NCBI GenBank assembly: GCA_015065455.1
Contig: SVQI01000002.1
Coordinates: 92,042 to 156,041 of the forward strand
Direction of reading: 5' to 3'
DNA: 64,000 nt
DNA from: Oscillospiraceae bacterium
Lineage (GTDB): Bacteria; Bacillota; Clostridia; Oscillospirales; CAG-272
A model generated the notes under the pieces. That model did not search any database and had not been told where the DNA came from. It saw only the letters and a program-made list of their open reading frames with translations. This document shows, piece after piece, positions 49,198 to 49,878 of the stretch. Position 1 is the first letter of the stretch. The number at the start of each line of letters is the position of its first letter. A program made the position numbers and the translations under genes.

Positions 49198-49878
49198 ATG
49201 AAAAAAATAATAGCTATATTGTGTGGTTTGATTATATCAATAACATTGATTTTTCCCGTAGCTGCTGTTAACGGCAAAGTTACTTATGACGGAAATGCAA
49301 AAGAATTTATTTTTGAACCGGGAAGCGCACACTCCCCTACCGATCTATTTCCTGATTTCAAAGGCGTTATGCCGGGAGATAATCTAACCCAAAAAATCAC
49401 CGTAAAAAACAATGCATCAAACGACGTTAAGGTAAAGATCTATATTCGTTCTCTCGGTGCAACTGAAGATTCTGCCGACTTTATGTCAAAACTTGGTCTT
49501 CAGGTTAAAAAAAGTGAAGAAAACGAAATGGCATATATGTTTGATTCGTCTGCCGACAAAACAGCTCAATTAACCGATTGGGTATGTCTTGGAACACTTT
49601 ATTCCGGAGGCGAAGTCAATCTTGACGTAATATTGAAAGTTCCGCTTGAGCTTGATAACGATTATCAAAGTAAAATCGGTTATATTGATTGGGAATTTAT
49701 GATTGAAGAATATCCAATTGAAGACACTGATCCCAAACCACCGCAGACCGGTAATAATTTTAATCTTATTTTCTGGTCTTCAATTACAATTTGTTCCGCC
49801 GGTATGATTCTTATTCTTCTATTCTGGAGAAAAAAGGAACAAAAGGAGCAACAAACACCAAATACGCATAACTGGTAA
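49198..49878 (+). CDS. secreted TasA-domain-like protein with C-terminal (S/P)PxTG sortase sorting signal
   Basis: 226 aa with a classical signal peptide (..FPVAAVNG) and GVMPGDNLTQKITVKNN. The C-terminus is PPQTG, a hydrophobic helix, then WRKKEQKE. Confidence 0.7.
   Translation: MKKIIAILCGLIISITLIFPVAAVNGKVTYDGNAKEFIFEPGSAHSPTDLFPDFKGVMPGDNLTQKITVKNNASNDVKVKIYIRSLGATEDSADFMSKLGLQVKKSEENEMAYMFDSSADKTAQLTDWVCLGTLYSGGEVNLDVILKVPLELDNDYQSKIGYIDWEFMIEEYPIEDTDPKPPQTGNNFNLIFWSSITICSAGMILILLFWRKKEQKEQQTPNTHNW

Follow-up and report, generated by a model that had tools for sequence, protein, structure and literature searches.

A candidate cell-wall anchor subunit without donor strand in a SipW-dependent TasA/BsaA-like fibre operon of gut Oscillospiraceae

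Introduction

Fibres of the TasA/BsaA type are usually treated as released matrix material, and their known attachments to the cell are a non-covalent one through TapA in Bacillus and the membrane anchoring of BsaA in Clostridium perfringens strain 13. We examined a gene at positions 49198-49878 of a 64,000-nucleotide (nt) stretch of DNA from an Oscillospiraceae bacterium (assembly GCA_015065455.1, contig SVQI01000002.1, positions 92,042 to 156,041), which is referred to as the window throughout. The gene lies in an operon (43230-51682) that also encodes SipW-type signal peptidases and TasA/BsaA-like proteins, and its product appears to combine a TasA/BsaA-like domain with a C-terminal PPQTG sorting signal. 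Genes and their products are designated here by the first coordinate of the gene, and the protein under study is accordingly the 49198 protein.

Several described systems provide points of comparison. In TasA fibres, residues 28-38 form the donor strand that is inserted into the next subunit (PMC9674648). For BsaA of C. perfringens, an isopeptide triad (N35/E56/K74) was shown experimentally, and a base-growth model was drawn in which the existing oligomer passes its strand to the newest subunit while that subunit is still tethered to the membrane (PMC11580942). It was noted in the same work that LPxTG proteins and sortases are common neighbours of BsaA/TasA genes, and that most C. perfringens strains encode a BsaB orthologue with an LPXTG motif beside srtB, for which the authors speculate on the anchoring of BsaA fibres (PMC11580942). 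This BsaB-LPXTG protein (ATCC 13124 type) is a paralogue within the TasA/BsaA family that carries a sortase motif; its gene adjoins that of the polymerising subunit in a sipW operon, and the proposed enzyme is a class B SrtB (PMC11580942). In paralogy, sortase motif and operon context the 49198 protein appears similar; compared by description, it differs in that its motif is PPQTG and the sortase is not adjacent. The 49198 protein has neither a SipW-type signal nor a donor strand, two features on which the preprint is silent for BsaB.

Bacterial AbpX clusters encode LPXTG anchors for which AlphaFold 3 predicts donor-strand complexes with the fibril subunit (bioRxiv 10.64898/2026.01.04.697558). 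The anchor from Clostridium amylolyticum (A0A1M6GRE1) is, like the role proposed for the 49198 protein, a wall anchor encoded with a donor-strand subunit and a dedicated peptidase; by description, the AbpX system differs in its fibril family and in its peptidase with 10 transmembrane (TM) segments, and both cases are in silico. Haloarchaeal Tafi loci comprise a tip protein TafC, a proposed anchor TafF with a TM helix and a jelly-roll domain, major and minor pilins, and a peptidase with an accessory protein (PMC12337348), a parts list that matches the operon of the window overall. TafF combines a jelly-roll domain with a single TM helix, a layout similar to that predicted for the 49198 protein. 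By description, TafF differs in being archaeal, in having its TM helix before the domain, in the absence of sortase and peptidoglycan, and in secretion by Tat or another route. The substrates of Clostridioides difficile SrtB (CD2831 and others) resemble the 49198 protein in carrying PPxTG or SPQTG followed by D or N, a TM helix and a basic tail, but are adhesins and hydrolases unrelated to TasA (PMC4155245). TapA of Bacillus subtilis is likewise encoded as an accessory protein in a sipW operon; located at one end of the fibre, it attaches the fibre to the cell. It is a SipW substrate, donates a TasA-like strand and has no sorting signal, whereas the 49198 protein is without a donor strand and its predicted linkage is covalent.

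Comparable arrangements are known among other pili. PapH of chaperone-usher pili and basal pilins of sortase pili such as SpaB join the polymer, cannot extend it and fix it to the envelope, and for the basal pilins a sortase makes the peptidoglycan link. The function proposed here would follow the same terminator and anchor logic, with no evolutionary relationship and with different polymerisation chemistry and machinery.

A first-pass annotation of the window had regarded the coupling of a SipW-processed fibre to the cell wall as not described for TasA or BsaA systems. This did not hold, as such a link was already proposed in silico, in two preprints and for the archaeal Tafi anchors. The prior proposals are in silico only, none of them covers the 49198 family or the loss of the donor strand, and no description of the family was found in our literature searches. 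A sortase-anchored terminal subunit of TasA-like donor-strand fibres is a recently proposed kind of protein, and would be plausible rather than surprising to a specialist.

Results

Architecture of the 49198 protein

The N-terminus of the 49198 protein, MKKIIAILCGLIISITLIFPVAA|VNG (predicted cut at the bar), runs from MKK through a hydrophobic core to VAA|V and contains IFPVAAVNG, as is typical of a Sec-type signal; the cleavage region of the homologues reads VYA|ADGKVTY. The domain that follows comprises about 150 residues and carries the family motif DLF-x6-MPGD-x3-Q-x-I-x-VKN. Residue Q65 (49390-49392), a near-invariant Gln, was observed within a conserved L-T-Q motif. The PPQTG motif stands 41-45 residues from the C-terminus of the 226-residue protein and is followed by a hydrophobic helix, the basic residues R211-K212-K213 and a short polar tail, EQKEQQTPNTHNW. 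Helices were modelled by AlphaFold2 (AF2) at residues 2-16 and 190-218. No other open reading frame (ORF) of the window has a sorting-signal architecture, and at NCBI the protein is annotated only as 'LPXTG cell wall anchor domain-containing protein'. The strings quoted in the first-pass annotation were all found in the sequence, and the complete C-terminal sorting signal it had described is present and conserved across the family. Its placement of the gene inside a SipW operon was borne out by the gaps of 13 and 14 nt to the flanking genes and by the two SipW-type peptidases in the block.

Relation to the co-encoded fibre subunits

Relationships were assessed by profile-profile comparison in hhalign, with family alignments built from the 80 best genome loci. 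All of these loci belong to gut metagenome-assembled genomes (MAGs), from ruminants and other hosts, of uncultured Clostridia that include Oscillospiraceae, Acutalibacteraceae and Faecousia. We found that the 49198 family matched a merged profile of the neighbouring subunits with a probability of 97.1% (E 7.4e-11) across residues 25-177, which is the whole mature domain. The corresponding values were 95.9% against the 44968 family and 89.7% against the N-terminal domain of the 45688 protein. Comparisons of a profile with a single sequence were weak (22.8%, 12.6% and 0.3%), and only the profile-profile comparisons were informative. A shared motif is also visible by eye, reading DLFPDFKGVMPGDNLTQKITVKNN in the 49198 protein and PLFDENTLWEPGFTSAKVLKVKNN in the 45688 protein. 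By the profile match and the shared motif, the 49198 protein is a paralogue, though a diverged one, of the fibre subunits encoded alongside it.

The AF2 model of the 49198 protein, built from 148 sequences, had a mean predicted local distance difference test (pLDDT) of 88.7. With one spurious first match set aside, Foldseek retrieved the TasA fibre (8aur, probability 1.00), the archaeal bundling pilus AbpA (7ueg, 0.99) and monomeric TasA (5of2, 0.97). The TasA-like domain recognised in the first-pass annotation is supported by the profile comparison and by these Foldseek matches, although their TM-scores are low, and the 'family-like strand' GVMPGDNLTQKITVKNNASNDV (residues 56-77) is real. Searches of PDB sequences with the 49198 protein, with the 49198, 44968 and 49893 family profiles and with the 936-residue 45688 protein gave nothing meaningful. 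Pfam and NCBIfam hold no model for the domain: 148 diverse family members yielded only C-terminal anchor models and occasional Cna_B matches, and the TasA model NF046066 was matched by 1 of the 148. The 49198 protein itself matched neither TIGR04088 nor, directly, any Pfam model. Lacking a SipW-type signal, a donor strand and a Pfam match, it falls outside the model-based definition of the TasA/BsaA family and is best described as a remote homologue.

Loss of the SipW box and donor strand

In the N-terminal alignment, the 49198 protein shows a gap of 19 columns located exactly over '..STLAWFTDSxxxxNN'. The gapped segment comprises the SipW box and the stretch equivalent to TasA residues 28-38. 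In the same alignment, the mature N-terminus is matched to what follows the neighbours' donor strand (TasA 28-38; BsaA 28-38 with N35). The A[WY]F box was present in 0 of 270 members of the 49198 family versus 119 of 120 homologues of the 44968 protein. An ordinary Sec signal without AWFTD box, as first annotated, is thus confirmed by the sequence, the N-terminal alignment and the family count. On this alignment, neither the SipW box nor the donor strand at the N-terminus remains in the 49198 protein, while the predicted sandwich is kept. Within the 44968 family, N37, E58 and K83 are invariant, and the N-to-E spacing equals that of BsaA N35/E56/K74.

Sorting signal and sortase

The PPQTG motif was exact in 114 of 120 close homologues (identity 66-99%). 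Because it is retained to this extent despite divergence elsewhere, the sorting motif is indicated to be under selection and not a product of chance. We then surveyed 150 representatives of the clusters at 50% identity. A TM helix with a basic tail was found in 143, of which 86 carried xPxTG, 30 the looser xx[KQ]TGD and 27 no motif; a motif of either form together with helix and tail was present in 116 of the 150. The first position of the family motif is variable (T, P, V, S and others), with a conserved core of [QK]TGD. Among 148 family members, TIGR01167 was matched by 21, the srtB_target model TIGR03063 by 8, PF00746 by 8 (E <= 0.001) and EF0750_LPXTG by 27. The 49198 protein is a predicted sortase substrate by every sequence criterion except the threshold of the curated hidden Markov model (HMM). 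Other C-terminal sorting systems, of the exosortase or rhombosortase type, were considered and rejected, as family members match the LPXTG and srtB-target models.

The sequences that SrtB of C. difficile cleaves best are PPKTG and SPQTG, which it cuts between T and G; its native peptides have PPKTGDS and SPKTGDN (PMC4155245). The family sequence ...PPQTGDNS resembles these native peptides. The assignment of PPQTG to the (S/P)PxTG class in the first-pass annotation fits these data, since the motif matches [SP]PxTG and the C. difficile enzyme cleaves PPKTG and SPQTG (PMC4155245). The linkers between domain and motif vary across the family, from none through Pro/Glu-rich spacers to Cna_B stalks, as would be expected of a wall-spanning anchor. 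Class B sortase genes were found co-directional with and downstream of the operon in two related loci, L073 and L016 (TIGR03064, 201 and 164.6 bits; cut-off 153.75). For the window and the other 78 loci we assume that the sortase, if it exists at all, is encoded elsewhere.

Family size, distribution and gene order

The 49198 family comprises 3,881 proteins (E <= 1e-3, database clustered at 90%), which fall into 1,360 clusters at 50% identity. The best of the 80 loci was only 71% identical, and the window's own species is therefore apparently not among the sampled genomes. The order of a 48615-like gene, the 49198 gene, a 49893-like gene and a 50594-like gene is kept in 71-79 of the 80 loci; where the contig extends far enough, SipW genes and 44968- and 45688-like genes lie upstream. 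The arrangement is also found around family members of only 35-45% identity. The 48615-like gene, directly upstream in the window, adjoins the 49198 gene in 75 of the 80 loci and was rated its most constant partner; the 49893-like gene, directly downstream in the window, adjoins it in 79 of the 80.

Several variants were also recorded. Two operon copies were noted on different contigs in several MAGs (L012/L065, L043/L050 and L019/L083). One locus (L072:1-10000) has an extra 49198-like gene upstream of the first SipW gene. A family member of 539 residues (L088:1488-3107) carries Cna_B stalk domains before TPQTG, and one of 217 residues (L084:280-933) has a TM helix and a KKK tail with no PxTG motif, in an operon of different gene order.

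Proposed role and alternative explanations

We consider the chance somewhat better than even that the 49198 protein is the cell-wall anchor subunit of a SipW-dependent donor-strand fibre or pilus of the TasA/BsaA type, encoded by the 43230-51682 operon. This reading builds on the paralogy, the loss of box and strand, the conserved sorting signal, the fixed synteny and the occasional fusion of srtB to the operon. The ordinary signal peptide of the protein would direct it to export by Sec, and the C-terminal helix would hold it in the membrane. The protein would accept the N-terminal strand of a 44968-, 48615- or 49893-type subunit and, having no donor strand of its own, could only accept; it would thereby take the terminal acceptor position at the cell-proximal end and stop polymerisation. 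The partner is expected to be a polymerising subunit because the N-E-K triad of BsaA is present in the 44968 family. A class B sortase, with its gene elsewhere in the genome, would cut between T184 and G185 and link T184 to peptidoglycan, by which the fibre would become fixed to the wall, with the 936-residue 45688 protein at the far tip. Termination at the cell-proximal end would fit the base-growth model drawn for BsaA. The acceptor-only polarity is held less firmly than the anchor role.

A number of observations weigh against this reading. The structural matches have low TM-scores (0.27-0.41, with 0.33-0.41 for the TasA fibre and AbpA; E 1e-3 to 6e-3), partly because some 75 residues of helices and tails were part of the query. 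When the AF2 model of the 44968 protein (pLDDT 79.5) was used as Foldseek query, TasA was not recovered (8aur ranked 23rd, probability 0.15), and a fold shared by the 49198 and 44968 proteins could not be demonstrated through a common PDB match. At the position of the BsaA acceptor Lys, Gln is found in 80 of 81 members of the 49198 family, there is no conserved Glu, and the donor Asn is missing because there is no donor strand. With neither Lys nor Glu, any donor-strand complex of the 49198 protein would not be isopeptide-locked in the manner of BsaA. The binding of fibre subunits is a prediction from sequence, and the acceptor rather than donor polarity is predicted from the missing N-terminal segment. 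Regarding the sorting signal, the LPXTG_anchor model TIGR01167 scored 13.3 bits on the 49198 protein, below its cut-off of 15.9, and PF00746 gave no match. The residue after the motif Gly is N in the 49198 protein versus D in 79 of 86 family motifs. The 27 of 150 representatives with TM helix and basic tail and without a recognisable motif indicate that wall linkage is not essential to the role of the family. No sortase was found in the window, in agreement with the first-pass annotation: no TLxTC motif occurs in a plausible ORF, and a phmmer search with two class B sortases against the six-frame translation gave no match. None was found in about 10 kb past the window end on longer contigs of the same organism, nor, by motif and phmmer, within 10 kb or the fetched flanks in 78 of the 80 related loci.

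These points bear on three other explanations. One is a role as nucleator or chaperone, tethered to wall or membrane in the manner of TapA or CapP: the protein would initiate or catalyse polymerisation at the cell surface, for example by lending its KVTYxG strand to the first subunit, without any termination. The model for such a role is TapA, the anchoring and assembly factor of B. subtilis, which works by strand donation to TasA (PMC9674648). The mature N-terminus of the 49198 protein, G-K-V-T-Y-x-G-N-A-x-x-F-x-F, begins 3-5 residues past the predicted cleavage site and is among the best-conserved parts of the family (Y30 in at least 90%), as a lent strand might be. However, the KVTYxG strand aligns with the neighbours' first core strand and not with their donor strand, and it is modelled at pLDDT >90 within the protein's own sandwich. 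The N-terminus does not resemble a fibre-subunit donor strand, which is the feature that would mark a TapA-like nucleator (PMC9674648), and the protein has no similarity to the AWFTD-type donor sequence common to TapA and TasA. We regard this explanation as unlikely.

It was also considered that the 49198 protein, derived from a fibre subunit and expressed along with the fibre genes, acts outside the fibre as an independent sortase-anchored surface protein such as an adhesin or shield. Its position between two fibre-subunit genes is fixed in 75-79 of 80 species and also in members at 35% identity, and its small domain of about 150 residues has no added ligand-binding module in most members, which makes such independence improbable, even though its signal peptide differs from that of every fibre protein, the BsaA acceptor Lys and Glu are missing, and the NCBI label says nothing beyond a wall-anchor domain. 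Finally, the sorting signal might be unused here and the protein might serve as a membrane anchor or assembly platform through its C-terminal helix, like archaeal TafF. The BsaA oligomers of C. perfringens strain 13 are membrane-anchored and not wall-anchored (PMC11580942), the motif is missing from 27 of 150 family representatives (e.g. L084), and in the 49198 protein it is followed by N rather than D with no sortase nearby. Selection on the motif, as read from its exact retention in 114 of 120 homologues that otherwise diverge by about 30%, and the fusion of srtB to the operon in L073 speak for a motif in use, and we hold this last explanation to be quite improbable.

The operon and its surroundings

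The operon is a co-directional block of nine genes, which encode two SipW-type peptidases, a 74-residue TM protein, five proteins with a SipW-type A-W/Y-F box and the 49198 protein. The features are listed in Table 1.

Table 1. Features of the 49198 gene, of its operon and of two related loci with a sortase gene. Positions are those of the window unless a locus is given.
Feature	Position	Strand	Evidence and remarks
49198 ORF	49198-49878	+	226 residues, ATG start, AAGGAGG 9 nt upstream
Ordinary type I signal peptide, residues 1-23, predicted cleavage VAA|VNG	49198..49266	+	sequence, -3/-1 rule
TasA/BsaA-superfamily beta-sandwich domain (predicted), residues 25-177	49270..49728	+	AF2, Foldseek, hhalign
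PPQTG sortase recognition motif (predicted), residues 181-185	49738..49752	+	sequence and homologue conservation
Hydrophobic helix (residues ~190-210) and RKK stop-transfer (211-213)	49765..49836	+	sequence, AF2 model
SipW-type (archaeal/endoplasmic reticulum-type) signal peptidase I, paralogue 1	43230..43994	+	TIGR02228 67.9 bits; SipW model E 2.3e-21
Conserved 74-residue single-TM protein between both peptidases	44021..44245	+	phmmer orthologues, equally placed, in 23 loci
SipW-type signal peptidase I, paralogue 2	44343..44879	+	TIGR02228 106.3 bits; Peptidase_S26 25.5 bits; 40/80 loci
BsaA-like fibre subunit, 225 residues, SipW-type signal and donor strand	44968..45645	+	TIGR04088 29.7 bits (cut-off 19)
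936-residue protein, TasA-like N-terminal domain with AWFTD signal	45688..48498	+	TIGR04088 28.7 bits
189-residue BsaA-like subunit, AYYS variant of the SipW box	48615..49184	+	hhalign 99.4% to the 44968 family
217-residue TasA-like subunit, AWFKD signal and donor strand	49893..50546	+	hhalign 99.9% to the 45688 N-domain, 97.6% to 44968
362-residue protein, TasA-like signal and donor strand (AYFSS), distinct domain	50594..51682	+	hhalign 94.9% to the 45688 N-terminus, 64 columns only
Class B sortase	L073:2865-3644		TIGR03064; starts 30 nt after the orthologue of 50594, the last operon gene
Class B sortase	L016:13077-13943		TIGR03064; about 0.8 kb downstream of the operon

Both peptidases scored above the TIGR02228 cut-off of 51.85 bits. 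The 43230 peptidase carries a charged, coiled-coil-like C-terminal tail of about 70 residues, and its orthologue was found in 30 of the 80 loci, many of which end short upstream. The 74-residue 44021 protein matched no family in Pfam or NCBIfam; it is possibly a peptidase accessory protein, as signal peptidase accessory proteins are described for TasA-like loci. The arrangement of the peptidase pair with the 74-residue protein was seen to recur in related loci (30, 23 and 40 of 80 for the three genes in order).

Among 117 homologues of the 44968 protein, TIGR04088 was matched by 103, the BsaA family TIGR04090 by 89 and PF12389 by 71. The protein is a candidate for the major, isopeptide-locked shaft subunit. 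In the 45688 protein, the N-terminal domain is followed by a Gly/Asn/Thr-rich region of about 700 residues, and the C-terminal region had no sequence match in Pfam, NCBIfam or PDB. It is a candidate fibre tip adhesin and probably beta-helical. Related loci often have two or three genes like 45688, with widely different lengths (176-1892 residues). The 50594 protein ends in a Thr/Pro/Glu-rich tail of about 170 residues without an anchor, and its gene was present in 71 of the 80 loci.

Profile comparison shows the five SipW-box proteins to be paralogues, with the 50594 protein sharing the N-terminal part only. The triad residues of BsaA are present in both the 44968 and the 48615 proteins. The lysine equivalent to BsaA K74 is found in the 44968 family and in 68 of 69 members of the 48615 family, whereas the 49893 family has Val at the BsaA Lys position (P+6) in 73 of 78. 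This difference suggests that only some of the subunit junctions may be covalently locked.

No tandem repeats were found in the operon at the DNA level. A scan for promoters and terminators did not rise above the shuffled background and gave no internal terminator on the + strand; the only candidate promoter, at 43068-43096, belongs to that same scan. Convergent with the operon, a gene at 51785-53032 (-) encodes a polytopic membrane protein of 415 residues with a weak match to GT87 (glycosyltransferase), for which a link to the Thr-rich fibre proteins is conceivable. Further downstream, the region at 54153-56435 (+) holds a helix-turn-helix regulator gene and a ComEC/Competence-domain gene.

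Implications

Beyond the single protein, we tentatively put forward, at rather less than even confidence, that the operon specifies a distinct Gram-positive pilus that is common in gut Oscillospirales. It would be a SipW-gated, partly isopeptide-locked donor-strand polymer with a large tip adhesin, an acceptor-only terminator and wall attachment by a class B sortase. If this is true, the pilus would merge the assembly logic of chaperone-usher systems with sortase anchoring.

The new elements in the present analysis are a very large family without a Pfam model, the specific loss of the donor strand, and a testable model for fibre termination and wall fixation. Annotation pipelines reduce the 49198 family to a generic 'LPXTG anchor', and its recognition would improve the annotation of thousands of metagenomic operons and provide a handle for finding adhesive pili in Oscillospirales. 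If the wall-anchor role holds, the polarity and the termination step of such fibres would be defined, and a subunit without donor strand and with a sortase signal would be a concrete answer to how TasA/BsaA-type fibres are attached in a large group of uncultured gut Clostridia.

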